Shown here: positions 1 to 64,000 of the stretch, in pieces
How positions within the stretch are numbered: the first letter of the stretch is position 1
Layout: every line of letters begins with the position of its first letter
NCBI GenBank assembly: GCA_947627805.1
Contig: CANQXB010000001.1
Span: 24,836-88,835, forward strand
DNA length: 64,000 bases
Direction: 5' to 3'
Source: an uncultured Bacilli bacterium
Lineage (GTDB): Bacteria; Bacillota_I; Bacilli_A; RF39; UBA660
Made by a program: the position numbers and the translations under genes
Notes under the pieces: model-generated
Database searches by the model: none
Seen by the model: only the letters and a program-made list of their open reading frames with translations
What the model was told of the DNA's origin: nothing

Positions 1-243
1 CTTTACTCATTAAATAATTTAGTAGATGTTATATCTACCACAGGGCAGCTTGCCCGCATAGGTGTATGGTCACATCCTGGTCTAATGATGATTATTAATG
101 GTGAAGAAATTAGAGTTACCGCAAGTGGTTATTATGAATTAGATGCAATTCTTATCACTTCTCTTGGAATTGTTGCTCCTGATAACAATTATTCTAATTT
201 CTTTACAATTGATTACGAATATGACGAAGATGTAGAAGGATAA
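1..243 (+). CDS. C-terminal fragment of an upstream virion structural gene; runs off the window start
   Basis: Frame 1 is open from nt 1 to TAA at 241-243, followed by RBS AAAGGAGG for the next gene. Confidence 0.4.
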   Translation, partial: LYSLNNLVDVISTTGQLARIGVWSHPGLMMIINGEEIRVTASGYYELDAILITSLGIVAPDNNYSNFFTIDYEYDEDVEG

Positions 244-255
244 AGGAGGCGCAGC

Positions 256-2763
256 ATGGATTCGCTTTACGGAGGCCATCAAGGAATTAGCTTTGTTCTA
301 AAAGCATCTTATCCATCTGTCGCTCAAATGGTTGCTGCTTTTAAAGGTGGCGCAAACTATACAGCTGTATGGTATGGTGAATTTGTTTTAATAGATACAC
401 CTAATAAAAATGATGCAGATAATGGCAAAGTTTATCGTCGTGGTCTTGATTATCAGAATAATATGGGTGGCGCTGAATATATTGGACAAATTGTTGGTCC
501 AAGCAGTGGTACACCATATTTTCAATTAGATGATCTTGATGAAGTCAAAGAAAAAGCGCAAGAAGCTATTGATGAATTAACATGGAAGAAATATCCAACA
601 GGCCGCGATGAAGATGGTAAATATATTGTTTCTACTAATGGTGACGGCTCAGATATTGGAGAATTTGCTTTTGGCAGGACTAATGCATTAGTACCTGGTA
701 AACAAGGTGAACAATTTAATGATGATATTAAATATACGTGGGTAAATATTCGTAAAGATAATGCGGATGCAGATTCATGGTTTTATGTTGGTTTTGAAAT
801 TCCTTACCTAGTAATTGATTACCAAGTTAATTCTGCAAGCCCTTATAACGATTTAGGAAATCGTGTTGATTTAGCAACAATTGAACGTATAGATAACTAT
901 ACTCATCCATTTTATGAAGAATGGCGATTAAATGTTCCAAAAGGTGTTAAAGGTGATACATTAAGTAATTTGCGAGTTATTGTACCGCAAGCACAAGATA
1001 TTATTTATGATATTGATAATATTACCACTTCTGTAGATCTTTCAACAGGTAAATTTACTACCACTCTTGGAAAACCGGGATATGATGGACAGCAAGATGA
1101 TATCACGGGTGGTCGTGCTATTTTAGTATTTGATTATTCTTATTATGATGATACAGCACAAGGCACTACTGTTACTGTTTATGTTGCTGATTATAATTTA
1201 GTGCGGGCTGTTAATTTAGATGATGATGGTACTTTGCGGTTAGAGATGACTCATGAAGATGAAGTTGTCTTTGAAAAGAAAATTCGTTGGATTGATTTAA
1301 TTTCTTTGACTAACGGTAATGGTCAAGATGGTGGTCATTTTACTTTTAGATATAATAATGATAATCCAAGACAGATAGATGAATTTGATATTTCTTGGAT
1401 TAAAGGTCTTGAAATAGATGATGATGGTTCTATAATTTATACTTATGCGGGAACACCAGATAGTTTACCTGAAGGAAACCGCCGCATTGCAGAAGGTGTA
1501 TATAGAGTTGAAGATTTCTTACAATGGATTTCCGCAGTATCTTTAAATTCTGATACTGGCGAGTTTACTGTTACTAATAATAGAAGTGAAACTATTTATA
1601 GTACAGTTTTAGATTGGATTAAAAGTATTCAACTTGATCAAGATGGTACTCTTCATTTGCGTCATACAAAAGACAATCGAGATGAACAATTAGTGCATGC
1701 AATTAAATGGGTAACTGATGTTGATCTTAATTTACAAACTGGCATCTTCCAAATAAATTTTAATTATGGAGATCCATTAACTGTACAACTTGATTGGATT
1801 AATGATCTTTATATTGATGAAGCAACTGGTGAAATCGCAGTTCATCATATAAGTGATGCGCATAACACTGACACCACTGCTGGCGGGCAAAAAGGTAAAA
1901 TTTTAGATGCTAAGTTAAAAATTATAGTAAAAGCACAAATTGGCTCTGATGGTACTATTGATTTTATAACTAACACTGGTAATGTTATTTCTTTGCAAAA
2001 TGCTGGATTTGAAGGCGGCGCTTTTAGATTTAAAACACTAGATGATGTACGACTTCAAACTCCAATAGCTGCGGATAAGCATATTCAAGTAAAATATAGT
2101 ACCGATGTAACTTACCAAAATATTGGTAATCCAATTAATTATATTCAAGATATGGTGGTCAGAAATACTGACTTTCATTTATTGGTTCTTTATAATGATC
2201 CTACTCATAGACCTACCGCGGAACAGTTAGATGAACAAGGTAAGTGGCATGGCTATAGTTGGATCGCTGATATACAAGGGTCAGATGGTTCTAACTATGG
2301 CCCATCTGTATATTGGCAAGATTTAGGGACTATTAAAGATCAAAGTGGTCTTTTAATTGGTTTTAATGTAACAGAAGATAAAATTACAGGTTCTTTATTT
2401 GATGATATTATCTCTTATCTAAATGGTACTTATCCTGATGGTTTAACTGAAGAACAAAATGAACGGGGCGGATTACCACTAAAAGGAAAAATAGTCACTT
2501 ATAGCAAAGACGTTGGAGATAGTAAAGAATATTATGCTTTTGATTATAATGCTCATTCATGGTATTATTTAGGAAAGTTAGAAGATAGCGGTGATATGCG
2601 GGATGCTAGAGCTATTCTTACTCCATATTCTGGAGCACAAAGACAAGAAATGATTCAGAAACTGACAACAAGTGGCTTGCTTTTTACTATTGATACGCAA
2701 GTAACTTCTTCTGATACTAATATACCAAGATACTGGAGTTGGGATTACAACCAATGGACATAG
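256..2763 (+). CDS. large virion structural protein, probably a tail or baseplate component
   Basis: 835-aa ORF with a strong RBS; Asp/Gly/Thr-rich beta-type composition; sits in the late block next to the tail fibre and lysis genes. Confidence 0.6.
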   Translation: MDSLYGGHQGISFVLKASYPSVAQMVAAFKGGANYTAVWYGEFVLIDTPNKNDADNGKVYRRGLDYQNNMGGAEYIGQIVGPSSGTPYFQLDDLDEVKEKAQEAIDELTWKKYPTGRDEDGKYIVSTNGDGSDIGEFAFGRTNALVPGKQGEQFNDDIKYTWVNIRKDNADADSWFYVGFEIPYLVIDYQVNSASPYNDLGNRVDLATIERIDNYTHPFYEEWRLNVPKGVKGDTLSNLRVIVPQAQDIIYDIDNITTSVDLSTGKFTTTLGKPGYDGQQDDITGGRAILVFDYSYYDDTAQGTTVTVYVADYNLVRAVNLDDDGTLRLEMTHEDEVVFEKKIRWIDLISLTNGNGQDGGHFTFRYNNDNPRQIDEFDISWIKGLEIDDDGSIIYTYAGTPDSLPEGNRRIAEGVYRVEDFLQWISAVSLNSDTGEFTVTNNRSETIYSTVLDWIKSIQLDQDGTLHLRHTKDNRDEQLVHAIKWVTDVDLNLQTGIFQINFNYGDPLTVQLDWINDLYIDEATGEIAVHHISDAHNTDTTAGGQKGKILDAKLKIIVKAQIGSDGTIDFITNTGNVISLQNAGFEGGAFRFKTLDDVRLQTPIAADKHIQVKYSTDVTYQNIGNPINYIQDMVVRNTDFHLLVLYNDPTHRPTAEQLDEQGKWHGYSWIADIQGSDGSNYGPSVYWQDLGTIKDQSGLLIGFNVTEDKITGSLFDDIISYLNGTYPDGLTEEQNERGGLPLKGKIVTYSKDVGDSKEYYAFDYNAHSWYYLGKLEDSGDMRDARAILTPYSGAQRQEMIQKLTTSGLLFTIDTQVTSSDTNIPRYWSWDYNQWT

Positions 2764-3098
2764 TACAATATAAAGGTCCTTTTAAGGCAGGTTCCCGCGT
2801 AACTGTAGAACCAGTAACTGGGAAAAGATATGTACATATTGGCATTCAAAGACCTAAAATACAGGGTTATGGAATACCAGTTACTACAGTTTCCGCGGAT
2901 GGTAAAACAACTACTGTTATTCCAGACTCTTGGAGAGAGATTAGAGCGCCGCATACACAAGTTAGAATAAATGATGTGATATATCAATATAGTCCAAGTG
3001 GAATATTAGAATTTGATGGACTAAATGAAGTAGAATGGAATATTACTTTTTTAGATGATGCCCCCGCGGAGACTATAATTGATATTGTGAGAGAATAA
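2754..3098 (+). CDS. small virion-associated protein (hypothetical)
   Basis: ORF overlaps the end of the previous gene; listed from a TTG at 2739, but ATG at 2754 is the more likely start. Confidence 0.4.
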   Translation: MDIVQYKGPFKAGSRVTVEPVTGKRYVHIGIQRPKIQGYGIPVTTVSADGKTTTVIPDSWREIRAPHTQVRINDVIYQYSPSGILEFDGLNEVEWNITFLDDAPAETIIDIVRE

Positions 3099-3111
3099 AA
3101 GGAGGTAGCTA

Positions 3112-5589
3112 ATGGTGAGAGGAGATCCCAATAACGAAGAAATGAAATTAAATTTCGTTGCTAAAGTTTGGGATGAAAAAGCAAATGATGGTCAAGGTGC
3201 ATATAAACCTATATATGTTGCGCCAGATGCTACCTCTAACACTAGAGGAGATGTTTATTTATCAGATGCTGTTGATGGTACGGATAACGCGGAGACTGGT
3301 GTAACAGCAGCAACCCCCGCGGCTGTAAAAGCAGTGAATGATAAAATTGATGATAAAGTATCTAAATCGGATTTAGAAACACAGTCTATTAAAAGTTCTT
3401 TGAACCCAGATGTAACGGATACTCAAGATTTAGGCACAGAAGAACTAAAATGGAATGATATTTATGCAAATAAATTCCACGGTGAATTAGACGGAAATGC
3501 GACTACTGCTTCAACTTTAAAAACTCCTCGTAATATTGGTATTAAAAATGGAGAAGCTGAAGAATCAAAACTTCCTTTTGATGGCGCAGGAGATATAACT
3601 ATTCCACTTAATAGTTTAGATGCTAGTACCTTGACAGTAGGAGAAGTTCCTCTAGCACGATTACCAAAAGCAGCTTTAGAGAGATTAGTTATTGTTCAAG
3701 ACTTAGATGCAATGTATGATTTAACTACTGATACTGTGCAACTTGGAGATACAGTTCAATTAGAAGATACAAAAGCTATGTATTATGTAGTTGATGAAAG
3801 TAATCTTGATAATGAAAAAGGTTACGTTGAATATGTTGCGGCTACCGCCGCAAAAGCAACAGAAGCAGATAAATTAAGTGATGCAAATGTAGGTTCATCT
3901 AGCCATCCTGTTTATTTTAGTGGTGGAAAACCAGTTGCTACTTCTGGTACTACTGGGAGCACTAGCTGTCCTGTTTATATATCTAATGGTGTGCCGACAG
4001 GAATTAGTGCTTTAAGTGTATCATATGGTGGTACAGGTGCTACAACTGCGAATGATGCTTGGACAGCACTTGGTGGCGGCAATATTGGCAAAATGAATTC
4101 TACTGGTTCTACTTCTTATTTCTTAAGAGCAGATGGTCAATGGGCTGCTCCACCTACGAGTAGCGGCAGTACTACAGATAATGACTATAGAGTACAACAG
4201 GCATATAGCAGTAACTCTAGTAGTTATCCGATTCTTTTAAGACCAGTTACTTCAGGTACTACTACTACTACTACTACTGCATATTATAGTGGAGTTAGCA
4301 TTACTCCATCTACAAATACTATTAATGGTAACTTAAGTGGTACTGCTTCTTATGCTACGTCCGCGGGAACTGCTAGTGGTTTATCTAGTACATTAGGTGT
4401 TTCTTATGGTGGTACAGGAAATACGTCATTGACTAGTAATCAAGTAGTTTTAGGTAATGGTAGTAGCGCATTAAAAACAACTAGTGCGACAGGAACAGGT
4501 GCTCTTTATCGTACTAGTACAACTGGAGCACCAAGTTTTGGCGTCTTACCAGTCGCGCAAGGTGGTACAGGTGTAACTAGTATTTCTGAGTTACAGAATT
4601 TAGTTGGAGGCGGAGGTTCTTCTTCTGATGTTAATGTAACGCAGAATGCGACAACAACTAATGCTAGTTATCCTATTTTATTAAAAGGTACAACTACATC
4701 TGGTTCATATACCGGTACTGTGTATTTTGATAGTGGGGTTACTCTTAATCCTTACACAAATATGATTGCAGCTAACATTAGTGGAAATGCGGCGACTGCA
4801 ACAACTGCTACTTCTGCGACAACAGCCACTACCGCAAGCGGTTTATCTAGCACATTAAGTATTAATGGCGGTGGTACTGGTGTGACTACTCTTACCTCTA
4901 ATCAAGTAGTCCTAGGTAATGGAACTTCTGCTTTAAAAACTACGTCAGCATCAGGAACTGGTGCATTATATCGCACAGGAACAACAAGTGCTCCTAGCTT
5001 TGGCACACTAGGCGTTTCTTATGGTGGTACAGGTACGACAAGTTTAACAAGTAATCAAGTTGTGCTTGGTAGTGGAACTGGAGCTCTTAAAACAACTAGC
5101 GCATCTGGTGTAGGTATATTACATCGTACTGTCGCGACTTCTGCTCCTACTTTTGGACCAATAAAATGGGAAACTGTAAATGTTACTTATAATACTACTA
5201 GTTCATTTGGTGGTACTAAACTTAAAGTGTTAACAAGTCCCAATGGTGAACAACGTGCTTATGTGTGCGGATGTAAAGCACTTAATATTCTTAAAATAGG
5301 TGTTCGTTTTGGTCTTGCTTCTGGTACAACTATAACAGCAGGGACTTGGACATTACTCACTTTACCAACAGGATGGCGTCCTACTTCTAAACGAACGTTA
5401 TATGATTTTTGTGAAATACAAGAAATGCATGCCCCAGAGGCACAAAGAGCACATTATTTAGGTAAATTTATAGTATATATTAATACCAATGGTACAGTAC
5501 AAGTATATATTCAATCAGCACGTAGTAATGTACAAGAAATTGCAATATATCAATTTCCTATAGATACTAGTCAATGGGGATTAACTTAA
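3112..5589 (+). CDS. tail fibre protein with internal Gly/Thr/Ser-rich repeats
   Basis: 825 aa; four or more copies of the module VSYGGTG..T.LTSNQVVLGNG.SALKTTSA.GTGALYRT; RBS AAAGGAGG. Confidence 0.7.
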   Translation: MVRGDPNNEEMKLNFVAKVWDEKANDGQGAYKPIYVAPDATSNTRGDVYLSDAVDGTDNAETGVTAATPAAVKAVNDKIDDKVSKSDLETQSIKSSLNPDVTDTQDLGTEELKWNDIYANKFHGELDGNATTASTLKTPRNIGIKNGEAEESKLPFDGAGDITIPLNSLDASTLTVGEVPLARLPKAALERLVIVQDLDAMYDLTTDTVQLGDTVQLEDTKAMYYVVDESNLDNEKGYVEYVAATAAKATEADKLSDANVGSSSHPVYFSGGKPVATSGTTGSTSCPVYISNGVPTGISALSVSYGGTGATTANDAWTALGGGNIGKMNSTGSTSYFLRADGQWAAPPTSSGSTTDNDYRVQQAYSSNSSSYPILLRPVTSGTTTTTTTAYYSGVSITPSTNTINGNLSGTASYATSAGTASGLSSTLGVSYGGTGNTSLTSNQVVLGNGSSALKTTSATGTGALYRTSTTGAPSFGVLPVAQGGTGVTSISELQNLVGGGGSSSDVNVTQNATTTNASYPILLKGTTTSGSYTGTVYFDSGVTLNPYTNMIAANISGNAATATTATSATTATTASGLSSTLSINGGGTGVTTLTSNQVVLGNGTSALKTTSASGTGALYRTGTTSAPSFGTLGVSYGGTGTTSLTSNQVVLGSGTGALKTTSASGVGILHRTVATSAPTFGPIKWETVNVTYNTTSSFGGTKLKVLTSPNGEQRAYVCGCKALNILKIGVRFGLASGTTITAGTWTLLTLPTGWRPTSKRTLYDFCEIQEMHAPEAQRAHYLGKFIVYINTNGTVQVYIQSARSNVQEIAIYQFPIDTSQWGLT

Positions 5590-12601: not shown

Positions 12602-13525
12602 TCAAGCGGTCTGATCGTGGCATACCTCATTAGCATCACCTCCTATAATAAAAGTGCTAGTTTCTAACAGTAAATCTTCTATTATTAAATTATTATAATG
12701 CCAATAAGGAATTCTAATAATTGGAATATTGTTATCAAAACAATATTGATTCTTAAATTGGTCTTTATTTTTAATTTTTTGTAAATCCATAGGAGTTCTT
12801 GCCCAAGTATTACTTTTGTAATGTTGTCGTCCGTCAAATTCAATGATATATTTGTTATTAACGTAAAAGTCAAAACGTAAAGATCTTTTAGAATTATTGT
12901 AAAATAATTTAGGAGCATATTCTTGAATATAAGGAATATTTGCTTGATTTAATAATGTTTTAATTTTTTCTTCTCCTTTAGAAAAGGAAATACAACCACA
13001 ACTAATAGTGTCATTTGCAATCAAATGATTGCCATATATATCTTTAATTGTGCCACATTCGCATTTACAAGTATATTTCACCCCATTTGTAACACGATCA
13101 TTCCATGTTTGTGTTTGAGAAGGTTCGATGACTGTTAATAATCCAAATTTTTGACCAGATAAATTATTTCTTAATTTTGTTTCCTTACATTGTGAGCTAC
13201 CACAACTTTTTGTTTTTCCAGTTCTTAAATGATTTTTATAGACAGATAAAATTTTTCCACAATTACATTGACAAATATATTTTTGGCTATTATTTTCATC
13301 TTTTTTTAAAACCATTAATTTACCGAATCGTTTCCCTATATCATCTATTTTTTGAGCGCACCCACAGCTTTTGGTGCGCCCTTTCCTTAGTTCTGATCCA
13401 TAAATACTTTTTATAGTACCACAATCACATTGACAAATCCAGTATCCACGCTGTTTAGTATTATCTCGTTTTAATACTGTCCATTTACCATATCTATGCC
13501 CTGTTTCATCTATTAATCTAGGCAT
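12602..13525 (-). CDS. free-standing homing-endonuclease-like protein inserted between nrdG and nrdD
   Basis: Five N-terminal repeats of Y.C.C.CG(T/K)I...G(T/K)TKSCGC; C-terminal FDFY.NN.YIIEFDGRQH resembles a DUF559/Vsr-like nuclease domain. Confidence 0.5.
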   Translation of the reverse strand: MPRLIDETGHRYGKWTVLKRDNTKQRGYWICQCDCGTIKSIYGSELRKGRTKSCGCAQKIDDIGKRFGKLMVLKKDENNSQKYICQCNCGKILSVYKNHLRTGKTKSCGSSQCKETKLRNNLSGQKFGLLTVIEPSQTQTWNDRVTNGVKYTCKCECGTIKDIYGNHLIANDTISCGCISFSKGEEKIKTLLNQANIPYIQEYAPKLFYNNSKRSLRFDFYVNNKYIIEFDGRQHYKSNTWARTPMDLQKIKNKDQFKNQYCFDNNIPIIRIPYWHYNNLIIEDLLLETSTFIIGGDANEVCHDQTA

Positions 13526-16417: not shown

Positions 16418-19400
16418 CCCATCTCTTATTAGTCATATCAAAGCTACCATCACTATGAATTTCTGTAATTTTATATAATTGATGCGAAGGAGTCTTGCTA
16501 TATGCTTTTGCTATAAACATATCTCCTCTTCTGTATCCATTTACAACTACTAAAGTACCTTTTGAGAACCAACTTGCTTCCCGCACTTTTTTTGTACCAT
16601 CTGGCATCACTTCACTTATGCGGCGATTATATTTTGCATAATAATCTCTATTAAATTTAACAAAAACAACTCCACTATTTGGTGTTAAAATAGATATGGT
16701 TGATTTTATATCATCTTTTGCTACTACAGTTCCCGCTATGCGGCAAGTTTCAAAAATAGGAATTTCAATACCACTTCTTTTAAAAGTATATTCTACAGGC
16801 GGATATTCTGGTAAATCTTTATATTCCCGCACATGTTCTAATTCTAGACGTGCTTCCCGCAATTCATGATCATGATAATAACAACCTAAACTATCCATTT
16901 CCCATTTTGATAATGAGCCTTCAGCATATTTTTTCCATTGCTCTTGGAATAATGCATCATTTAATTGTTCTAATAATTCAATTTTATGTTTTGTTATATA
17001 TTCTTTTGCGGGAGCCATAGCTTTATCGTAGCATTTCTTTTTCCATATTTCTTTATCTATTGCTAAATCATTATTAAAAGGTTCTAATAAATCAATATCA
17101 AAAAATTGTTCATAAAAATCATAATAATTATCTTTAATAATATATTTACCATTTTTTAATACATTTTTTAATGCTTTATTAAAAACAAATACTCTTTTTT
17201 GAAAATCTAACTCTTCTGGCAATAAATTTCTTTGATTTAAACCGTTAAAATTTTGCATAGTTACACGTTTTTTAGGTTCGCTGCATATGTTCATATAATC
17301 TTGCATTACTTCTATACGATTTTTAAATTGATCAAAAGCTCCAGCTTTAATCAAAGATACTATAACAGTTTTATTTGCAGAAGTTTTTTCTAAAACATCC
17401 TCTAATCCTTTATATGGACGATTATCTATAATCTCTTGGATAATCTCTCCACCAACTCCATTAAGTCCTTTCATTCCAAAAAGTATTTGATTATTTTCTA
17501 CGTCTGGTTCAAACATATATAATGATTTATTTATATCAATTAAAGATATATGAATACCATGGTTCATCATATTACCTACAGCTGTAGCAATTTTATCATA
17601 GTTTGTACTTGCATCTTCATCTAGTCCGCTATCTACTCGTAAACATGCAGTATTCCAATAAATAGGATTATAATATGTAGCTAGATAAACAGTCTGCAGC
17701 CCCACATATGAGTATGCCAAGGAATGGATCAGAGAGAATGAATATCCTAGTTGGATCTTAATCAACACTTCCCAAACATATTCTCCTAAAGCAGTAGACT
17801 TAGCTGATTCTAATACTTTTTTCTGAAGCTGCGGGATTTCCTCCATTCTTTTCTTTGCACAGACTTTCCTAGCCCAATTTGCATCCTCTAAGCTAAATCC
17901 GCAGATATCTGGATCCATTAAGATCATCATCATATCTTCTTGCTGCGCGGGCGTACCATAACTATCTTTACAATATTTCTCTAACACATGCTGTTCTGCT
18001 TTAGTTAAACCCCAACGATTCATTTCATCATACCATAAAAACAAATTATTTTTTAATCTTTGATATCTGTCTGTCGGTGTTTCGCCACCTTTTTCTTGAG
18101 CCATTAACCGCATAACAGAATTACAAGTTGCCATTTCTTTAGGGCTATGTGGCTTTAAAGTTTTGATAGTTTGTGCACCTACCATACTATCAAATTGAAA
18201 GAACTTTAGAATATTACCTGAAACTGCAGCTTCCCACAATTTTTCATCATTAATTGGCAATACATCTGGATGTAAATATTTATTATAAAGCTGTCGCAGA
18301 CTTAAATTTGCTTCTACTTCTTCATGTTCTTGAAGAATTTGGAGGCACTGGGTAATCACGTCCTGAATCTCTGTCACCAAAAAGTCATATTTAACTGATC
18401 CAACTTCCTCTTCGTCATGAAGAGAAAACTGCGTTGTGATCGCTCCATTGCGGGCCTTCATGAAACACGAAGATTCATATGGATCATCATCATAAAAAAC
18501 TACTCCAGATGCATGGATACCTCTACGTGAAATTAACCCTTCAATCTTTTCAATAATTTCTAATAGTCCAGGATATTTATTTACTTCTTGAATAAATGCT
18601 TTAACAGGTTTTCTATCTTTTTCTTTATTCCCATTAATAACATCAGAAATTGGCCATAAAAAACCTCTTTCTACAGGAATTAAAGATGACATATATTGAG
18701 CAATATCATTATCAATACCGTGCGGAAACTCCGCTGCACTATACCCTCTACAAGCTGTTACAATTGCTGACTTGGTTGATTCTGTACCATACGTACAAAC
18801 TTGAATACAACCTAATTTTCCACGTTCTTCTCTAATCCTGGCGAAAATTTCTTCTCTTTTGCTGGGGCAGATATCAATATCAATATCTGGCAATTCTGTT
18901 CGAGATTTATTTAAAAACCTCCAGTAAGGAAGAGCATTCTTCAGCGGGTCTAATTGAGTAATACCCAGCAGATAATGATTTAATCCCGAACAAGCGCTAC
19001 CTCTTCCAGCTCCAACAGTGCTCCCGCATTCCCAAATTAAATCAATATATTTTTGTAAGAAAATTGGATAACTAAAAATACAGGTTCCTAACTTTTCACC
19101 AATAAATTTTTGAATATCTGCTTCTTCTTCAAGCCTACTTAAATATTTATCATTATATAAATCAAGTTCCCGCAATTTATTTAAACAATAATTTACCCAA
19201 TATCTTTCTTGCGGATTGTTGCTATCCAAAAGTGAGTTAAGAACAGAATAACCAATATCTTTCTTGACTCTTGGGTAATCTGGTACATCTACTTGCGGGC
19301 AGTGCTGTTTGCGGGCAATGCTAAAATCTCCAATCTTACTATAAACTTCTAAAGTATTATTTTTTAATTCTTCATAATCTAAATCTGTATTTTTTAAATT

Positions 19401-20359: not shown

Positions 20360-20881
20360 TTATAGCAATTCAGCAAATATAAGTTTATCTGATAAAAAAT
20401 TTTTACATAAATAAATAGAAGCAAAAGCAGGTGATTTTGGTTTATCTGATAAATCTAAATTATGATGAAATCTTATTCTTTTATTAAAAATAAGTAATTC
20501 ACACTGTTTAATTAAATTAAAACTTTTTTGAAGCTGTATACTTGGTAATGGCCACATAATAGCAAAAGGAATATCTAGTTTAAATAAATATTTTAATATT
20601 TCTTCTTTCTTACTAAAAGGCGGATTACTAATTATACAATCACAAGGTGGGTAAGGTATTTCAAAAAAATTTTGATCATATTCTATATGTGTATTTATTA
20701 CATCATATTTTTTTGACAATATTTTAACATATTGGCTATCTTCTGTATCAAAAGGACACCAAATTGTTTTTGTATCATCAGGGATATAAGGTAGAATTGC
20801 TTCTACAGCATAACTAGGGGTATATAATTCATCTCCTTTAACCGTTCTATCACTAGTCATATATCCTATATTCATGCCCAT
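20360..20881 (-). CDS. small DNA N6-adenine methyltransferase (NPPF motif IV)
   Basis: DCIISNPPFSKKEEI catalytic motif. Confidence 0.55.
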   Translation of the reverse strand: MGMNIGYMTSDRTVKGDELYTPSYAVEAILPYIPDDTKTIWCPFDTEDSQYVKILSKKYDVINTHIEYDQNFFEIPYPPCDCIISNPPFSKKEEILKYLFKLDIPFAIMWPLPSIQLQKSFNLIKQCELLIFNKRIRFHHNLDLSDKPKSPAFASIYLCKNFLSDKLIFAELL

Positions 20882-23065: not shown

Positions 23066-24154
23066 CTATTGTAATATAATTCTATTTTCTCTAAACAAAT
23101 ATTGGAACACATCTTTACCATGGTCTAATGGCGATGATTTATAATCTAATAAGTTGCTTTCATCCCATATAATACTTACATTGACTTGTGAAGTAAACTT
23201 GCGAGCTAATTTAATCATTTTATCTCTATTCTCATAATATTCTTGTGAGCCAATGTCTTTAAAATCTTTATCGAATGCGATAATTAAATCTTTAACTCCA
23301 AGAGTCACAAGTAAATGAAATTGATATTTTGATATAGAGCTGCCGCATACTGCTACACACATATTATTACCTAAACCAATATATGATAAATATTGCATAA
23401 CAGCTTTTTCTGATTCTACTACAATAGCCGTTTTCTTCTTTTGTATATTTTCTTTTGCTTGTTCTAACCCATATAAATTAAAAGCTAATGGATGATTATA
23501 CATTTTACCATTATTTATCCACGGTCTATACTTTCCACATTGCTCTTCAATTTCTTTTACTAATGTTCTTGTTCTAATTCCTATTAATCTACCATCTTCA
23601 TCTGTATGAGGAATTAAAATTCCACCATTTACAGGATCATACCGTATATTCATATAATCACAAACTTCTTTAATTATACCTTCACGCTCCCAAGATTTAA
23701 TTAAAGGTTGTGGATAATATTGTAAAATATTCTCATTGATTTGCGGCAAGATTAATTTTTCAGTTTGCTCACCATGAATTTTTGCGACTCTTTGATATTC
23801 TCTAAATGCTTTTTGATCTTCTGTATTTAATACTTCTATATCAGTTATAGAACCTTCAAGATTAAAAAATTGAACAACAAAATAAATTGCCGTATTAAAA
23901 TCTTCTAAATGTTCTATTTTTTGTACTAGTTCAAATATATCAAATTTTCCGCAACTACCTGTGTAACATGTAAATAGTTGGCTATTTTCATAATAATATA
24001 ATTTATGAGAATCTCCGCCATGACATATTGTTAATGCTTCTATATGATTAGAATACATTTGCGGTTCTGCATTATAATATTCTAATAATAAAAAAACATC
24101 TTCTAACTCAATTAATTCTTTAACTTCTTCTTTACTATAGCTCATTATTATCAT
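23066..24154 (-). CDS. DnaG-like DNA primase
   Basis: CHC2 zinc finger (CHGGDSH...CYTGSCG) followed by a Toprim region (VVESEKAV...D.D). Confidence 0.75.
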   Translation of the reverse strand: MIIMSYSKEEVKELIELEDVFLLLEYYNAEPQMYSNHIEALTICHGGDSHKLYYYENSQLFTCYTGSCGKFDIFELVQKIEHLEDFNTAIYFVVQFFNLEGSITDIEVLNTEDQKAFREYQRVAKIHGEQTEKLILPQINENILQYYPQPLIKSWEREGIIKEVCDYMNIRYDPVNGGILIPHTDEDGRLIGIRTRTLVKEIEEQCGKYRPWINNGKMYNHPLAFNLYGLEQAKENIQKKKTAIVVESEKAVMQYLSYIGLGNNMCVAVCGSSISKYQFHLLVTLGVKDLIIAFDKDFKDIGSQEYYENRDKMIKLARKFTSQVNVSIIWDESNLLDYKSSPLDHGKDVFQYLFRENRIILQ

Positions 24155-26956: not shown

Positions 26957-28045
26957 CAATTATGTTATCCTAAAGGCTTTTTATCCTTTAGTTCTTATAC
27001 TTCTTATTCGTATAAGTTCAGCATATCTTTTTATCCTTTTGCAAAGGATAAGCAGTCTCGTGGAAAATTATTTCATTATAAGTTTTTGGAATTTTTCAAA
27101 TTTTCTTTTCATATAAATTTTTGGATTATCTTTATAAAGAAAATCTAAAACGGTTTTAGCTTTATTCCCATAGCAATAAAGTCTATATAAAGGAATTCTC
27201 CTATTTTCACCAAATTGAGAAGTTAAATTAAGTTGAATATTGATAGTCTCTAATAAGTATTGCTGAATTTCAGTTAAAAAATGTAAACAAGTAGAATCTA
27301 ATTGAAAAACTAAAGAAGTCGCTTTTTTAACAGAACCATCGCCATCAAAAAACCCTCTTATGTAATGACGAATTAAATGATAATCAATACTATCTAAAGG
27401 AACATGGAAATTTTTATGATTGTAAGTTTTATTTGGAGGTAGGTGGTATCGTTCAATTAATATTTTTTTAAGATTTTTATCTTCTATATAAAGTTTACAA
27501 TTTTCATATCCTCGTTGTGTCACATAAAATTTAATTGGTCTAGTTAATCCCATTGCTTCTCTAATTTTTTCTAGCACTTCAGCATCTTGTTTTCGTAACT
27601 CAATATATACTTGATTACTTCGTTCTGCTACACATCCATCAGCTGCAATTAAACCTAATGTATATGCTAATTCTTCAGACTGATGATAGAAAAAATCTTC
27701 ATTAAAATTATATACTCTGCAATGCTCTCCCGGTTTTCTCGTATCAACATTGTGTTTTGCTAAAATTTTTCTTAATCTTTTTTCTCCAATGCTAAAATGT
27801 TTACATGTCTTTTTAATAGAATTAGGTTGTAAATAATATTCAACAACCTTTAATTCATTTACTTCTACAATTTTACCCATTTTACTCCTCCCGAGTCAAA
27901 TGTTTTACTTATAATGTTTAAGTTTTCTATGCGTTGCACGTGACTAAACTTTTGCATTTAGCCTTCCGTTCTGATTCCCCTCTCAGGGTTCCAGCTTTTA
28001 CTGCTTTTTTCAAAGAATATTACTATTCTAAGCGGCAAGTAATTT
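26957..28045 (-). mobile_element. group I intron 2 in the ATPase gene, carrying a LAGLIDADG homing endonuclease
   Basis: Starts T|AAATTACTTGCCGCTTAG like intron 1; shares TTGAAAAAA, GAAGGCT, ACG(T/C)GCAACGCATAGA and the 3' block TGTTATCCTAAAGGCTTTTTATCCTTTAGTTCTT with intron 1; covarying P9-like stem. Confidence 0.7.
27068..27880 (-). CDS. LAGLIDADG homing endonuclease, intron-encoded
   Basis: LGLIAADGCV and IRGFFDGDGSV motifs; N-terminal HTH-like region; own RBS and start codon. Confidence 0.8.
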   Translation of the reverse strand: MGKIVEVNELKVVEYYLQPNSIKKTCKHFSIGEKRLRKILAKHNVDTRKPGEHCRVYNFNEDFFYHQSEELAYTLGLIAADGCVAERSNQVYIELRKQDAEVLEKIREAMGLTRPIKFYVTQRGYENCKLYIEDKNLKKILIERYHLPPNKTYNHKNFHVPLDSIDYHLIRHYIRGFFDGDGSVKKATSLVFQLDSTCLHFLTEIQQYLLETINIQLNLTSQFGENRRIPLYRLYCYGNKAKTVLDFLYKDNPKIYMKRKFEKFQKLIMK

Positions 28046-37753: not shown

Positions 37754-38823
37754 CGTATTATCCTATATTTCTATAGGGACTGACTATTTCTTCGCTCTGA
37801 TTTGTCAAATCTTCAACGCGTCCTCTATTTCGAATTACGTATCAATAGTAATCCTACTCCCTCACAACAAGGGATAGTCGATACAGCTTATTTTATATCT
37901 TTATAAGTTTTTCTAAGCGCAATATTATAAATCGTGCTATAGACTTGAGTTAAATTAAGTTGTTTTTGAATTTGTTTTACTGATATTCCTTGGTCGTATA
38001 AATCTCTAATTTTTCTTACTTCATCAGGACTAAATTGTCTTTTGTTATTAGCAGCAACCTCATAAGGATTAGCTTTAGCTCTAGTAGCATGCCATTTTCT
38101 ATTCTCTTCAGTATAATATTCTGGATATACTTCTTTCCAAGTATCAAACCACCAAACTTTTTGTAATCCTCTTTTAGAAATTTTAGTTTTATACTGCTCA
38201 TATACGACTTTAAAAGGAATATGGTCATTATAACATTCTCTAATATACTTAACATCATCCAAAGTCAATAATGCGCGACCATTATTTTCTCCTTTTTGGC
38301 CTGGCTTTCCTTTGCTATCTGAACCACCAGGAGTTGCATTATAGCCATTGTAATAAGAATCATATTGATTAATGTATAATTTTTCAAGACTATCTAAAAA
38401 TTCTTGAGTATATTCATCTTGTGAAATCTCTACTAAAACTTGGAAATCGAAGTTATCCCATCCATATTTTCTTATTGCTTGATGAAATTGACTATTATAA
38501 TCTTGAGCTTGATTATTATATGCAGCATTTTTATGTTGAGACACTCTTCTTTGTATATTAATGCTTTGACCTACATAAACTTTTTGATTAATTTTATTAG
38601 TAAATTTATAAATTCCTATCATACACTACCTCCTTCATCGTTTATATATGAAAGTGATAATGTACAAATAACTCAATTTTACCCAAAGATATAAAACCTT
38701 GCCACGAGATTATCTTCGCCTAAACATATTTTGACGTATATGTGTAACGGTCAGACTTCCTCGTTAGCCTCATAAAGAGACCCCTGCGATAAACAGGAAA
38801 AAAGGATAAGGGCAATTCCATTT
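37754..38823 (-). mobile_element. group I intron a in the topoisomerase gene, carrying a GIY-YIG homing endonuclease
   Basis: Exon A ends ELIITEG|; intron ends GGATAATACG|GATTCT; P7-type GATTA...AATAGTC. Confidence 0.65.
37888..38622 (-). CDS. GIY-YIG homing endonuclease, intron-encoded
   Basis: MIGIYKFTNKINQKVYVGQS...R...H...E GIY-YIG motif; own RBS AAGGAGG. Confidence 0.8.
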   Translation of the reverse strand: MIGIYKFTNKINQKVYVGQSINIQRRVSQHKNAAYNNQAQDYNSQFHQAIRKYGWDNFDFQVLVEISQDEYTQEFLDSLEKLYINQYDSYYNGYNATPGGSDSKGKPGQKGENNGRALLTLDDVKYIRECYNDHIPFKVVYEQYKTKISKRGLQKVWWFDTWKEVYPEYYTEENRKWHATRAKANPYEVAANNKRQFSPDEVRKIRDLYDQGISVKQIQKQLNLTQVYSTIYNIALRKTYKDIK

Positions 38824-46954: not shown

Positions 46955-48145
46955 TTAAACTGCCTTAAAATTATAAATAGGAGTTAATTGCTCAGTTATA
47001 ACAAAACCATTACGAGTTAGGAGTTCTTCTAATGCTTTACTACTATTATATGTATTAGGAGCTTCATCTAATGTAGACTCAGTAACACAACTAGAATAAA
47101 TTCCATTCATTGATGCCTTATATGACTCTATTTGCAATAGTAGATGTGCGGCTGTACGTGACATTACACGACCAGCCCCATGCGGCAAACTATTATTCCA
47201 ATCTTCGTTCTCACACCCTTCGATAATAAGTAGTCCATCCCGCATATTTAACGGAACTAGACATCTCGCGTTTGTACAGTCGATAGCACCTTTTCGCACT
47301 ATATGATTATCTACATCAACGTAATTATGTAAACTTGTTGCAACTATAGAATAATTATAATAACCTATTAACATATTGGCCATAGCAATATGACTTACTA
47401 AAGACCAATTTGCACAAACTAACATATCATTTAAATAATCATCTAAATCATTACCTTCAATATAAGCTAAATCAGACTCTAAAGCATACTTTTCAATTTG
47501 TATTCCATGTAACATATCTAACATCTGGCTAATTAATTGTTCTTGATGCGTCTCTTTCCCATATGAAATAACAGCTTCCCGCATTGTTTTAAGTAGGTTA
47601 CCTTTACTTTTGGATTTTTCTACAGCAATTTTCTGATAAAAATTACAAACTTGTACTCCTAAATTGCGGGAACCACTATGTATAACAAGATAAACACGAC
47701 CATTGTCATCTACATCTAATTCGATATAGTGATTGCCTCCTCCAAGAGTGCCTTGAGAATTGATAATACGTTGATGATTACTAATATAATCCCAACACAT
47801 CAATTCATTATAATCAAAAGAAGAAACAGAATGATTATGAATATTTCTTCCTGTTGGAATAACAGAACGTACTTTTTTATCAAATTTATCTAAATCTGTC
47901 ATATCTTCTAAGAACCAAGGGGTTTCAAATAGCGATATGCGGCAACCAATATCAACTCCTACAGTATTAGGACAAATCTTATCACTAAATGTAGAGGTAA
48001 AACCAACACAAGACCCTTTACCCGCATGCGCATCTGGCATAATGCGGATTTTCTGGTCCACATACGCAGGACTTGCCGCAATTTCTGCAACCTGGTCTAA
48101 TAGTTTTTTGGTTTTATTTAAAGCAAAATTTTTAACATCAGTCAT
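46955..48145 (-). CDS. rtcB: RtcB RNA 3'-phosphate/2',3'-cyclic-phosphate ligase
   Basis: MPDAHAGKG, GVDIGC, GGGNHYIE and HSGSRNLG RtcB motifs; start moved to ATG 48145 behind RBS AGAAAGGGG. Confidence 0.8.
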   Translation of the reverse strand: MTDVKNFALNKTKKLLDQVAEIAASPAYVDQKIRIMPDAHAGKGSCVGFTSTFSDKICPNTVGVDIGCRISLFETPWFLEDMTDLDKFDKKVRSVIPTGRNIHNHSVSSFDYNELMCWDYISNHQRIINSQGTLGGGNHYIELDVDDNGRVYLVIHSGSRNLGVQVCNFYQKIAVEKSKSKGNLLKTMREAVISYGKETHQEQLISQMLDMLHGIQIEKYALESDLAYIEGNDLDDYLNDMLVCANWSLVSHIAMANMLIGYYNYSIVATSLHNYVDVDNHIVRKGAIDCTNARCLVPLNMRDGLLIIEGCENEDWNNSLPHGAGRVMSRTAAHLLLQIESYKASMNGIYSSCVTESTLDEAPNTYNSSKALEELLTRNGFVITEQLTPIYNFKAV

Positions 48146-48178
48146 AAAAAAAATCCCCTTTCTTAACAATATAAATAT

Positions 48179-49768: not shown

Positions 49769-49864
49769 GTAAATTTTATATTGAATCAGCTTTGACACTT
49801 GAAGTCACAGTTTGTGATTTCAAATTTAAACCTATCTCTCATTGGTAAAAAACAATACCTATAG

Positions 49865-49939
49865 TCTGCCTAGCAGGATTTGAACCTACGACACCTTGCT
49901 CCCAAAACAAGTGCGCTAACCAAACTGCGCTATAGACAG
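49865..49939 (-). tRNA. tRNA-Pro (anticodon TGG), CCA not encoded
   Basis: CTGTCTA-TA-GCGC/AGTTTGGTTA/GCGC-A-CTTGT/TTTGGGA/GCAAG-GTGTC-GTAGG/TTCAAAT/CCTGC-TAGGCAG-A; flanked by inverted repeat TACCTATAG / CTATAGGTA. Confidence 0.75.
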
Positions 49940-50249: not shown

Positions 50250-50541
50250 ATTTATTCCTTTCTTTTGGAATAAAAATTTTTTTCTGGTGGAGCTGCTGAC
50301 TTACGATAGCCAGGTCCTAACATACTAATTACTAAATCCTTAATATAATCTAAAAGATAAAATTAGTTAATAAATGTGCCTTTTAATGATTCTTCCTCGC
50401 ACGTAAAAGGCATCGGTGCGAGGTATAGGCTTATGCTGCCATTGCAAAATTAAATTTGTCAGTTAATTTTTTAAAGGTGATTACAGATTTAGCTTTCATA
50501 TCCTAGTCGAATCCTTTCAGCCCCTTTCTCATTATATTAAT

Positions 50542-55220: not shown

Positions 55221-55251
55221 AAATAAAAAAAGTGCGGAAACCCGCACTTTT
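55221..55251. terminator. bidirectional rho-independent terminator downstream of the Ro60-like gene
   Basis: AAAAAAA-GTGCGG-aaac-CCGCAC-TTTT. Confidence 0.65.
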
Positions 55252-59493: not shown

Positions 59494-60438
59494 CTATCCT
59501 AGATTTATAAATGCACGAGCTGCCGCAAAGGTCTCTCGTTGAAGAGCTGCGAAATTAATAGTCGGGTTCTTCCATTTCTTACAAATGAGAGCTATTTCAT
59601 CAAGAACCGCATCTCTCCAAACCATTTGTAGGTACATTCCAATATGCTTATTTGTTTTAGTACTGAATTGTTCGTTAAGAGTATTCTCAATTTTTGCGAT
59701 AGCTTTCCCGCATTCTTCATCAGTGACACAATATTTGACAATCTCTTTTTCTGTCTCTCCTGCGGGAATTACTTTCTTGCTCTTGGATTTGTCTTGTCGA
59801 TACTGCGGCCGCACATATTTACCAATTTCATAGCGGCCATATTTATTAAGATAATCAAGTCGCCGCACAACCAAACCTTCTCCAATAGCGCCATTGAGCA
59901 TTAGGAAAGTATTTTTTTCAGCCTCAGCCGCAATATCTTGTGTCGTTGGATTTTCAAGAGTTTTAAATGGTACATAATAAGGATATTTTTCTTCTCCATA
60001 CATGTCCCAATAGACATCAAGAAGCTCTCGCCATTCCGCATCTTCTAGGTAGCGGCCTGTGGATGAATCATAAATATCAAACACCCACAAGTGTTCAAGT
60101 GCTAGAGTTGGATCATAAGATTTAATGCTTCCGATAAATTTGCGGGAACCGAGCCATTCTCCATATATAATATAGGAAGGATTATCTGTTAGCACTTGCC
60201 GCAAAACAACCTTTTCAGAAGTATTTACATTAGACCACCAGAGAGCAAAATCTGCGTTGTCTTTCTCTATAGTGATGGTGCGAGTGCGGGAGCCTGCGCA
60301 AAATTCGCCATCATTGAACCAGACACAAGAATTAGTGCCATCCAGCTTTGGAGAAATTGTGACAGTGCCATTGAGAAGTCCTTCTACATCAGGAGACTCC
60401 AGTTTTTCAACATGATTATATGAACGATAAGTAGTCAT
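59494..60438 (-). CDS. RNA ligase, Rnl2-like covalent nucleotidyltransferase
   Basis: Motif I SPKLDGTN, motif III YIIYGEWLGS, motif IV GEGLVVRRL, motif V region; no OB/DNA-ligase-type C-terminal domain. Confidence 0.55.
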   Translation of the reverse strand: MTTYRSYNHVEKLESPDVEGLLNGTVTISPKLDGTNSCVWFNDGEFCAGSRTRTITIEKDNADFALWWSNVNTSEKVVLRQVLTDNPSYIIYGEWLGSRKFIGSIKSYDPTLALEHLWVFDIYDSSTGRYLEDAEWRELLDVYWDMYGEEKYPYYVPFKTLENPTTQDIAAEAEKNTFLMLNGAIGEGLVVRRLDYLNKYGRYEIGKYVRPQYRQDKSKSKKVIPAGETEKEIVKYCVTDEECGKAIAKIENTLNEQFSTKTNKHIGMYLQMVWRDAVLDEIALICKKWKNPTINFAALQRETFAAARAFINLG

Positions 60439-61537: not shown

Positions 61538-61750
61538 CAAGAGGAGATGAGTTTAGGAAAACCAGATAAAAAAAGTTAGGGGAATATGTTAAAAAAGTTA
61601 GGGGCCTAAAAGACAAAGACAAAGATATATAAAAGACATGTCATCTCTCTTTTAGTTTAGTATTTTTATCATGCTAAAACATGATATTTGATATTATATA
61701 TTAAAAATGATAAAAGAAATTTCGGAGAGACTATAAATAAACAGATAGTA

Positions 61751-61966
61751 AAAAATATAACACATTATTAGTAGGGTAATAAAAAATATAACACATTATA
61801 AAAAAAATATAACACAACTTATGCAAAAATATAACACATTATAAAAAAAATATAACACATTATTAGGAGTTATTTATTGACCCGATCAAAAATATAACAC
61901 ATTCCGATCAAAAATATAACACAACCCGCCGAAAAATATAACACAACCTATGCAAAAATATAACAC
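61751..61966. repeat. iteron array: 9 direct copies of AAAAATATAACAC(A), spaced mostly 21-22 bp; probable origin or initiator-binding site
   Basis: Copies start near 61751, 61782, 61803, 61825, 61846, 61888, 61910, 61932 and 61954. Confidence 0.7.
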
Positions 61967-62033
61967 CCTAAAAGTAATAAGTAATAAGTAATATAAAAGT
62001 AATGTCTCAACTTCTCTCTTAAGATAATTGTTA

Positions 62034-62077: not shown

Positions 62078-62098
62078 TTTGACATTATATATTTTTAT

Positions 62099-62127: not shown

Positions 62128-62146
62128 TTGAATATAAGGAGTATTA

Positions 62147-62878
62147 ATGGATAAAATTTTCATTAGTGTTGCAGAAGATCATATGAAGGAGAAGAATTAT
62201 AATCCTAAAGCTGTGGTTATTGCACAAGATTTAGGTTATATTCAAGAAGGTAATAGGGTTATTAATCGTCGAGAATTTACAACTTATCTTCAGCGAATAT
62301 TAAAAATAACTAAATATAAATGTAAAAAAATAATTGATACTTTTGTAGATACTGGTATTTTATTACAACATGATAATGACAGTAATATATTAATTATGCC
62401 AGCATTAAAAACAAATTTTCTAAAATTATTAAGAAGTACAACTAAATTTTGTATAGATGGTATAAGCGATTTTGCTTTTAAAGTATATTGTTATTTATTT
62501 AATAAATATAATATTAATCAAACTTATTGTAAACATCATAAAGAAAATTTTTTCTTTAGTAAAAAGCAGATATTAGCAGATTTAGGCTATAGTCGAGGAC
62601 AAGATAAATTAGTACAATTAACGAATGTTTTAACACTTTTACAAGATTTAAAAATGATTAATTATAATGAAAAAGGTATTGGTAGACCTGGTAACCATGG
62701 TACTTATCATGAACTTTATAAAGTGAATGAATATAGTCCTACACAAGTTAGAGCTTTAAATGTTACTATTGAAGAATTAGGGGTAGATAAATGTCCAGAA
62801 TTAGTTAAAGAACGAGATATGTTAGTAGAAAAAGAAAAATTTACGTTACCGGAGAAAAATGAAGGGTTTCAATTTTAA
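62147..62878 (+). CDS. hypothetical protein adjacent to the iterons, candidate replication initiator or iteron-binding protein
   Basis: 243-aa ORF with RBS AAGGAG; the functional guess rests on position only. Confidence 0.5.
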   Translation: MDKIFISVAEDHMKEKNYNPKAVVIAQDLGYIQEGNRVINRREFTTYLQRILKITKYKCKKIIDTFVDTGILLQHDNDSNILIMPALKTNFLKLLRSTTKFCIDGISDFAFKVYCYLFNKYNINQTYCKHHKENFFFSKKQILADLGYSRGQDKLVQLTNVLTLLQDLKMINYNEKGIGRPGNHGTYHELYKVNEYSPTQVRALNVTIEELGVDKCPELVKERDMLVEKEKFTLPEKNEGFQF

Positions 62879-62906
62879 AAGGAGAATAGTATGTATAAAG
62901 TTAAAT

Positions 62907-62966
62907 ATTATAAAGATTTTCTTATACCTTAAAGAATTATAAAGATTTTCTTATACCTCAAAGAAT
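62907..62966. repeat. tandem 30-bp direct repeat (2 copies)
   Basis: ATTATAAAGATTTTCTTATACCT(T/C)AAAGAA twice, head to tail. Confidence 0.6.
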
Positions 62967-63915
62967 TTGTGGTGCGCACATATAACAAGCGTTGTCAACA
63001 AAAATATTTTAAAATACATAACCATAACAAATTCTCGAACCTTCAAATTTATTATTTTGTTAAAAGTTAGCAATTTTAATGTTCAAACATACAATATTTT
63101 GTATTTTTTCAATATGTTTTTGATACAATATTTAGTATAGAATAGCGCAGTTAGTATAATTTTTTTTCAACCTACCAAATACTCGAGAGATAATAAAGTT
63201 AATAAATTTTGATAATGGATTTTGTTTATATTTAATATATATAAATTTTATACATATTTAATTTATTTTTAATATTTAAAAAATGATAAATCTTGAATCC
63301 TAGAAAATTTATAATAGGTGCGGAGCTGTGGAAAACTCAATAAAATTAATGGAAAACTTGTTGAAAGCTATTGAATTTTCAATGGAAAACTTGTTGAAAA
63401 CTTGTGGACAATCGTCTGAAGAGACAGGGCTAGCATAATTTTTCCTCAACCTGACAAGGACACGAGAGATAACAAATTCAATAAATTTTGATAGCAAATT
63501 GCGGGCCTCTGTGATATTAACTTTTTCGCTAGCTAAAACATTCATCTTACAGGGTTGCCGCGTATCAGTACCACCCTTATTACTATTTTCATTTCTACTT
63601 TTGGAATTGGGCTAACTTTAGTTAGTTAAGAATTGTTAAAAATAATTTTCAAGTTTGGGACTCCTAAATAGTTTTCATTTTCACTTTTGGAGACTCACGA
63701 AAAAAGTTTCATTTTAAGTAGAGGTTAGTAGCGCGAGAATCAGCCGAAGAGAATCTCATTTTCATTTCCAAAAGAAGTTTCAGTTCAAAATTTGTCTTTA
63801 CAGATAATAAAAAGTATTGTATAATATAGTCATCAAGAGAGGATAAGCCAGCTTGATAGAAGGAACAAAGTGTGGCTGTCCTGTGGTCTGAACTTTTTAA
63901 CTAGTTAAAAAAGTT

Positions 63916-63944
63916 TTGACAGTATAAAAATTTTATATTATAAT
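63916..63944 (+). promoter_or_regulatory. plus-strand promoter, TTGACA, 17 nt, TATAAT
   Basis: TTGACAgtataaaaattttatatTATAAT near the window end. Confidence 0.45.
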
Positions 63945-64000
63945 ATATGTGTAAGAAAGAGAAAAGAAAGAATAGTTAAAATATAATAAGCACTCCAAGA

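Follow-up and report, generated by a model that had tools for sequence, protein, structure and literature searches.

A short DNA word, (T)GCGG, is favoured irrespective of frame and strand in a large SPbeta-like gut phage

The 64-kb window analysed here (the 64,000 nucleotides of contig CANQXB010000001.1 under study) is part of a large SPbeta-like phage whose host is a Gram-positive gut bacterium, and it is densely filled with the word GCGG/CCGC, most often in the form TGCGG/CCGCA. The DNA is under a strong pressure toward (T)GCGG that is blind to reading frame and strand, overrides synonymous codon choice and acts equally in non-coding DNA. This pressure is either selection or a biased molecular process; its specificity is about 5 bp and it is conserved in the phage family. 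To our knowledge, there are few cases of a DNA word dictating synonymous codon choice so strongly, the nearest being the uptake sequences and, more weakly, Chi. The DNA covered comprises 64 kb of a genome of ~117 kb, together with ~15 kb of flanks.

In a survey of all k-mers, GCGG/CCGC was the top over-represented 4-mer, with 429 sites, 4.6x the number expected from base composition and 2x even under a maximal-order Markov model. The two forms occur 211 and 218 times on the top strand, which corresponds to ~1 site per 150 bp. The top 5-mers were TGCGG/CCGCA (268 sites, 8.6x base composition), GCGGG/CCCGC (8.2x) and GCGGC/GCCGC (7.8x). One TGCGG is present per ~470 bp per strand, compared with one per ~4 kb by chance. 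The base at position -1 of GCGG is T in 62% of the sites in the window and in 71% in its clade, and is A in 8% only. On the 3' side, position +1 is not T, and positions +2 and +3 are weakly A (V-A-A, where V is any base but T). A longer motif or repeated element was rejected, as no information was found outside T-GCGG-V-A-A and the 7- and 8-mers were absorbed by higher-order Markov models.

The original prediction had proposed the 7-mer TTCCCGC/GCGGGAA as the unit. Its counts were reproduced or exceeded: TTCCCGC occurs 20 times and GCGGGAA 14 times on the top strand (34 in total vs 1.7 expected from base composition), TCCCGC/GCGGGA occurs 57 times where at least 35 had been claimed, and TTCCCGCA/TGCGGGAA occurs 27 times. 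The residual excess of TGCGGGAA is modest (27 vs 15.4 at Markov order 4). The enriched unit is not the 7-mer but the 4-5-mer (T)GCGG, of which TTCCCGC(A) is a favoured extension, TGCGG(G/C)AA. An excess of CCGCGG, put at about 17 copies, had also been reported. The count stands (20 sites vs 1.3 by base composition), but 17 are expected at Markov order 3, and counting on both strands gives 40 vs 34-37 expected at Markov orders 3-4. CCGCGG is thus explained by 4-mer frequencies; it is a statistical by-product of overlapping CCGC and GCGG and not an independent signal. No CCGCGG was found in eight relatives whose 4-mer content predicts 1-3 copies. This 6-mer is therefore not conserved, and selection may act against it in those eight relatives. 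The field of sites and one example of the overlap are located as follows.

1..64000, no strand assigned: GCGG/CCGC site field, 429 sites, 268 of them TGCGG/CCGCA.
2216..2221, no strand assigned: CCGCGG, an overlap of CCGC and GCGG, one of 20.

The clearest evidence comes from codon choice. In the codon-aware background check that had been named in the original prediction, 300 shuffles of synonymous codons were made within genes, with the protein sequence and the per-gene codon usage kept. The enrichment survived: genes contain 390 GCGG vs 172 +/- 10 in the shuffles (z=21) and 246 TGCGG vs 78 +/- 7 (z=24). The values for GCGGGAA, TGCGGGAA and CCGCGG were 31 vs 4.2 (z=14), 24 vs 2.2 (z=16) and 19 vs 2.4 (z=11), respectively. 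Codon-order shuffles gave ratios even larger than those of the synonymous shuffles.

Synonymous choice depends on the neighbouring base. Arginine is encoded by CGG in 33% of cases after G vs 2% elsewhere, and by CGC in 63% after C vs 7% elsewhere. Proline is encoded by CCG in 46% before C vs 4% elsewhere, and cysteine by TGC in 72% before GG vs 25% elsewhere. The arginine and proline contrasts each have an odds ratio of ~19. CGG is used in 58% of Met-Arg pairs and in 0% of Trp-Arg pairs; since ATG CGG is common but TGG CGG never occurs, T at position -1 matters. Permissive synonymous positions are filled in 18% of cases for GCGG and in 26% for TGCGG, and in 3-9% for other CpG-containing 4-mers. 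GCGG is spread across all six frames (48-96 sites per frame and orientation), and intergenic DNA, with the non-coding RNA region excluded, is enriched 6.0x for GCGG and 10.4x for TGCGG. The earlier claim that the force acts on the DNA word rather than on the protein is upheld by the use of six frames, by the 6-10x intergenic enrichment and by the neighbour-dependent codon choice.

These data bear directly on a coding artefact, in which amino-acid content, codon usage or codon-pair bias (e.g., Arg-Glu written as CGG-GAA) would alone create the word. The Leu-Arg-Glu and Met-Arg-Glu examples with CGG that had been cited earlier are present in the polymerase DnaE and in RtcB.

16854..16861, minus strand: TGCGGGAA (top strand TTCCCGCA), read as TTG CGG GAA (Leu-Arg-Glu), DnaE residues 1120-1122.
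19167..19174, minus strand: TTG CGG GAA (Leu-Arg-Glu), DnaE residue 349.
47576..47583, minus strand: ATG CGG GAA (Met-Arg-Glu), RtcB residue 196.

CGG-GAA accounts for 14 of 66 Arg-Glu pairs, 12 of the 31 in-gene GCGGGAA copies are read as xxG-CGG-GAA, and in phage SPP1 a 2x excess of GCGG does stem from codon usage. Against such an artefact, the shuffles leave z=14-30, six frames and the antisense strand are involved, and intergenic DNA is as enriched as genes. CGG was correctly described as a rare arginine codon and the motif as present in other frames too; the codon is rare (2%) unless it follows G. The probability left to a coding artefact is negligible, and a purely coding explanation is refuted.

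The sites are balanced between the strands. TGCGG and CCGCA occur 129 and 139 times on the top strand, and relative to genes 132 sites are sense and 114 antisense. The motif had been described as lying mostly in the same top-strand orientation, which is contradicted by these numbers and by the 20 vs 14 copies of the 7-mer. The balance is kept despite a 1.5-fold G/C skew, in every part of the window and its flanks, and each 4-kb block is balanced. The spacing per strand is Poisson-like (mean 445-490 bp, coefficient of variation 1.07), and no helical or codon periodicity of site spacing was found in the window. Beyond the window ends, in the loci L049 and L050, the site density is unchanged. The extreme skew, switching at origin and terminus, that characterizes polar architecture motifs (KOPS/SRS) is absent. 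GCGG/CCGC sites hold 30% of all CpGs, and CpG contexts outside the word are depleted (0.28-0.73x), except GCGC and GCGA/TCGC. The 50-61 kb region has a GCGG density ~2x that of the replication genes. Inverted GCGG-N4-CCGC pairs are in excess (7 vs 0.7 expected in the window; 16 vs 3.2 in the clade), but hairpin function was rejected as a general cause because such pairs make up only a few per cent of the sites. One of them resembles a terminator.

55228..55251, no strand assigned: AAAAGTGCGGAAACCCGCACTTTT, terminator-like hairpin, TGCGG-N4-CCGCA, one of 7 such inverted pairs.

The longest motif-free stretches of the window coincide with homing-endonuclease open reading frames (ORFs) and a few low-GC ORFs, which contain 0-1 sites vs 5-16 per kb elsewhere. 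The pressure has not yet acted on these recently arrived homing-endonuclease genes, three of which are listed.

27068..27880, minus strand: LAGLIDADG homing-endonuclease ORF, no GCGG/CCGC.
37888..38622, minus strand: GIY-YIG homing-endonuclease ORF splitting gyrB, no GCGG/CCGC.
12602..13525, minus strand: HNH/intron-encoded endonuclease ORF, one GCGG in 924 bp.

The LAGLIDADG ORF interrupts a Sak4-like AAA_24 ATPase (28028-28318 and 26306-26959), and the GIY-YIG ORF interrupts GyrB (38770-40149 and a Toprim fragment at 37514-37681); both interruptions are probably group I introns. Further endonuclease ORFs are located at 28430-29221, at 44763-45572 and in the C-terminus of 31341-32246.

The word is a property of the phage family. 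GCGG is in excess in all 21 related loci from the IMG/VR database (DnaE 52-66% identical) and in nearly all 26 loci from metagenome-assembled genome (MAG) bins (43-83%). In the clade of the window the enriched form is TGCGG (5-10x), and context-dependent codon choice was also found in locus L001. Distant subclades keep the GCGG core with C at position -1 (L026, L040, L032) or with G at -1 and C at +1 (L043, L047). At positions where a relative has the same amino acids, 43-72% of the TGCGG sites are kept, vs roughly 0-56% for control 5-mers. This retention is close to the independent equilibrium occupancy, so the density of sites, and not particular sites, is maintained. Three controls behaved differently: in SPbeta GCGG is at 0.8x with no context dependence; in SPP1 it is at 2x, frame-biased, accounted for by codon usage and without context dependence; and in a 26%-GC bacterial chromosome segment it is at 0.7x. 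These controls rule out that the excess comes generally with AT-rich DNA or with the replication module of SPbeta. A literature search on TGCGG or GCGG enrichment in phages returned nothing relevant outside the Chi and uptake-sequence literature.

Several 4-bp palindromes are depleted in the window (TCGA 0.28x, CCGG 0.37x, GATC ~0.5x), as expected from restriction avoidance. This avoidance varies among the relatives compared, L001, L013, L021, L042 and L047: TCGA is absent from L042 (0 vs 73 expected), GCGC is absent from L047 (0 vs 13) and CCGG is at 0.1x in L013. The differences suggest different restriction pressures, hence different hosts or strains.

Among the mechanisms considered, the one ranked first, although tentatively and as a possibility that is itself doubtful, is that (T)GCGG acts as a Chi-like signal for an AddAB-type nuclease. 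Of the functions listed in the original prediction, too, Chi-like remains the best candidate of a known kind. All such rankings here are judgements and were not computed. A host helicase-nuclease of the AddAB/RexAB type would enter at double-strand ends, which would be either the ends of the injected, circularly permuted genome or the tails of rolling-circle or recombination-dependent replication. The enzyme would degrade DNA up to 5'-TGCGG-3' on the 3'-ending strand, spare that strand thereafter and load RecA, and a signal of five letters would be read with limited efficiency. Because the ends could lie anywhere and face either way, and because reading would be limited, dense and orientation-balanced sites are proposed to benefit the phage.

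The Chi sequences of Firmicutes are read by AddAB and include AGCGG (B. subtilis) and GAAGCGG (S. aureus). TGCGG is one base off the B. subtilis Chi. Known Chi sequences have a GxGG 3' core in common (PMC3321194; bioRxiv 10.1101/2021.07.08.451572), and this core is present in TGCGG. The Chi of E. coli is enhanced by purines on the 3' flank (PMC5041463), beside which the V-A-A flank of GCGG may be set. Chi is over-represented in phages without RecBCD inhibitors and scarcer in genes of recent acquisition (PMC3784561). In the window, no member of a RecBCD/AddAB inhibitor family was recognised, TGCGG is over-represented against composition-based and codon-aware backgrounds (8.6x, z=24), and the homing-endonuclease ORFs, as recently acquired DNA, contain 0-1 sites.

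Several observations weigh against a Chi-like role. Chi is co-oriented with replication at 75-90% in bacterial genomes, whereas here the sites are divided 54:46 between sense and antisense and ~56:44 in favour of the presumptive leading strand from a candidate origin at ~61.8 kb (described below). In a circularly permuted phage such a balance could be functional; the lack of polarity therefore lowers the probability of Chi-like action without excluding it. The enrichment of 8.6x, with an odds ratio of ~19, is far above the documented Chi excess, for which an observed/expected ratio of ~2.3 has been given (PMC3784561). AGCGG, with A at position -1, is the enriched form in no subclade, and no context-driven enrichment of AGCGG was found in the B. 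subtilis phages SPbeta and SPP1. Finally, the GCGG core persists across a deep family, whose DnaE proteins are as little as 45% identical and whose contigs fall into MAG bins of many taxa; a phage-encoded reader accounts for this no less well than a host enzyme. The later of these observations speak for the two rival explanations that follow.

The same data have been weighed for a molecular drive at the level of the duplex, which is considered unlikely. In this explanation, a sequence-specific modification enzyme or a very-short-patch-type mismatch enzyme would mark or correct (T)GCGG without benefit to the phage. The enzyme could be one that modifies cytosine or guanine, or a mismatch endonuclease, encoded by the phage family or by a conserved host system, and the word would decay more slowly than its neighbours, or mismatches would resolve toward it. 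A position-blind process acting on the duplex would naturally produce strand symmetry, Poisson-like placement and the same strength in coding as in non-coding DNA. The word is also CpG-centred while other CpG contexts are depleted, site density is maintained but site identity is not, and the family has a variable methyltransferase slot, which in L007 and L013 is occupied by C5-methyltransferase-like ORFs and in the window by an ORF with an NPPF motif.

However, a search of the 64-kb window for Vsr-like, C5-methyltransferase and 7-deazaguanine genes yielded none, and C5-methyltransferase-like ORFs are present in some relatives but not consistently. The products of deamination are not depleted either, as the transition neighbours TGTGG and TGCAG are at 0.95x and 1.25x, although this is weak evidence at equilibrium. 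The CCWGG-related word bias of E. coli arises from Vsr repair, and the repair-driven word excess in that organism is ~1.2-1.6x; the 8.6x found here counts against a drive. Because restriction-modification specificities turn over fast, a host system would not be expected to leave the GCGG core stable throughout a deep family. Relatives sharing the same motif have different methyltransferases in the slot, which also speaks against a drive.

20360..20881, minus strand: 173-aa methyltransferase-like ORF with NPPF motif, in the variable slot between recJ and dnaE; 1 site, 25% GC.

This ORF matches PHROG 799 (E=6e-31), over profile positions 208-363 of 458 only, and its Pfam EcoRI_methylase score of 25.9 bits is under the cutoff of 26.4. 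In L007 (8917-9867) and L013 (7755-8741), the recJ-dnaE slot contains 316-328-aa C5-methyltransferase-like ORFs with PCQ and ENV motifs. The ORF of the window looks foreign. It had been set beside the motif in the original prediction, but nothing ties the two: it was rejected as the cause because the slot holds different methyltransferases in relatives with the same motif enrichment and because the ORF itself is motif-poor. Another candidate, the ORF at 30381-31340 as a ThyX-like base-modification enzyme, was rejected since it resembles neither the ThyX of L052 nor any solved structure. This unclassified 319-aa ORF (PHROG 6721) belongs to a nucleotide-metabolism set together with a dCMP deaminase, a dUTPase and a dNMP-kinase-like ORF. 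The gene calls come from a simple ORF heuristic and are wrong at at least one locus, where the dCMP deaminase (43419-43862, minus strand) is displaced by a spurious plus-strand ORF; the deaminase was recognised because its identical counterpart in L054 has a Pfam match.

The reader of the word might instead be encoded by the phage family, as a replication or genome-handling protein for which dense sites on both strands are selected; the odds of this are judged to be rather poor. It has been considered in two versions. In the first, a DnaG-like primase would initiate on the template 5'-CCGCA-3', with the A cryptic, and make the primer pppGCGG.

23066..24154, minus strand: DnaG-like primase with zinc finger and Toprim domain (Toprim E=4e-5); the CHC-type zinc motif was read in the translation.

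The primase of SP6 uses the site 5'-GCA-3' with a cryptic A. An all-G/C tetramer is the most stable primer available in an AT-rich genome, and a pentamer occurring by chance about once per 4 kb per strand would be too sparse for lagging-strand priming, so a density of about one per 470 bp is functionally sensible. In the second version, a phage nuclease or binding protein would use the word as a private 'self' mark, i.e., as a phage-private Chi. Both versions agree with the observation that the core is conserved family-wide and that the flanking base changes with the subclade, as expected if the reader co-evolves, and genes for a primase, a helicase and a polymerase are carried by the family itself. 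On the other side, SPbeta has the homologous module without the enrichment, the orientation of the sites is unchanged across the candidate origin, and neither a candidate nuclease nor an abundant DNA-binding protein was identified. The sites read by known DnaG-type primases are trinucleotides, and we know of no case of genome-wide enrichment of primase sites; both points count against the primase version.

A self-mark private to SPbeta-like gut phages, with (T)GCGG read by a phage protein on duplex or unwound DNA, is likewise improbable. Possible readers are a nuclease that has a 'Chi' of its own, a sequence-targeted DNA-modifying enzyme whose sites have been multiplied to shield the genome, and the primase. 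The carpet of sites would distinguish or service phage versus host DNA, and in each subclade reader and flanking base would evolve together.

The assignment of the window to an SPbeta-like phage is based on its gene content. The window has 32.8% G+C and is ~88% coding, with a minus-strand block at 10.1-60.4 kb and plus-strand genes on both sides. It contains an SPbeta-like replication module composed of a DnaB-type helicase, a zinc-finger/Toprim primase, a RecJ-like exonuclease and a PolIII-alpha polymerase (DnaE). The polymerase has 40% identity to YorL of SPbeta, and the gene order is the same as in SPbeta. Other genes encode gyrase subunits, DNA ligase, NrdD/NrdG, dUTPase and RuvC, and an RNA-repair set (RtcB, a TROVE/Ro60-like protein and an RNA ligase). 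The lysin carries Amidase_2, CW_7 and SH3 domains, and a Gram-positive host is therefore indicated. No close cultured phage was found for the window. Its phage relatives come from IMG/VR and from MAG bins of rabbit, rumen, sheep, buffalo and human gut, and the taxonomy of MAG bins is unreliable for phage contigs. The same phage genome is present as fragments in assemblies of the European Nucleotide Archive (ENA), among them ERZ27249352 and ERZ27249358, and as an NCBI contig of 116,643 bp, which encodes identical proteins. A search for the host through homologues of GyrA, the lysin and an M23-peptidase, through encoding contigs, cluster names and the non-coding RNA region returned only metagenome contigs, other phages of the family and tRNAs.

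A candidate origin consists of nine copies of AAAAATATAACAC(A) at 61750-61975, spaced 21-22 bp apart, on one strand only and in a 26%-GC region. The array is located directly upstream of an unannotated 243-aa ORF (62147-62878), beside the point at ~60.5 kb where transcription direction and GC skew switch, and together they resemble a replication origin of the iteron type and the gene of its initiator. A second repeat, GGTGGTACAGG, is present in four copies at 4027-5035, on one strand, within a tail-fibre-like gene (3112-5589). Translated, it gives a YGGTG peptide repeat; it is therefore a protein repeat and not a DNA signal.

An ORF-poor stretch rich in non-coding RNA contains a full-length ROOL RNA (48418-49011, minus strand; Rfam RF03087, 324.7 bits, model positions 1-574) and adjoins RtcB, tRNA-Pro and a tmRNA-like gene. 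The latter (50285-50524, minus strand; Rfam RF00023) scored 49.8 bits, barely exceeding the gathering score of 47, and was not called by ARAGORN. Three tRNAs were identified: Arg-TCT (42436-42510), Ile-TAT (46801-46895; 95 nt, unusually long) and Pro-TGG (49864-49939). The genes for RtcB, the TROVE/Ro60-like protein and the RNA ligase (46955-48169, 55250-56707 and 59494-60438, respectively) are grouped with the ROOL RNA, the tmRNA-like gene and the tRNAs. This grouping looks like an RNA-repair or RNA-quality-control module carried by a phage.

The carrier of the word belongs to a family of large, uncultured phages that are abundant in gut and rumen. If the Chi-like reading were true, the word would predict the Chi sequence of uncultured Firmicutes and offer a sequence-based handle for host assignment. 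If the reader were phage-encoded or a modification enzyme, it would point to an undescribed way of marking or protecting a phage genome. As a sharp compositional marker, (T)GCGG recognises family members and exposes foreign inserts such as homing endonucleases.

Four known systems may be compared with the word. The word bias caused by Dcm and Vsr is likewise strand-symmetric, frame-independent, position-blind and centred on a methylatable cytosine context. It differs in that no methyltransferase/Vsr pair was found in the window, that T-containing neighbours are not depleted here and that the effect here is an order of magnitude larger.

The uptake signal sequence (USS) of Haemophilus, whose core is AAGTGCGGT, and the DNA uptake sequence (DUS) of Neisseria also reach very many copies whatever the frame or orientation, and sometimes form terminators as inverted pairs. 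The USS core contains TGCGG (PMC5217627). These sequences have cores of 9-12 bp with structured flanks and are spread by biased uptake and recombination in naturally competent Gram-negative bacteria, whereas the unit here is ~5 bp without such a core or flanking structure and its carrier is a phage.

Restriction-site avoidance in phages is also an effect on DNA words and is present in this genome (TCGA, CCGG, GATC); the lack of CCGCGG in eight relatives may be set beside it. It has the opposite sign: the AciI-type word GCGG/CCGC is enriched here.

The Chi sequences of Firmicutes are similar in that they are short G-rich words ending in GCGG, over-represented, mostly located in genes in any frame and rarer in recent DNA, and some phages are known to be enriched in Chi, which protects them from the end-processing nuclease of the host. 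The word described here differs from them in that GCGG is preceded by T (C or G in other subclades) and never by A in its enriched forms, in that it is not co-oriented with replication or transcription, and in that its enrichment is several-fold stronger.

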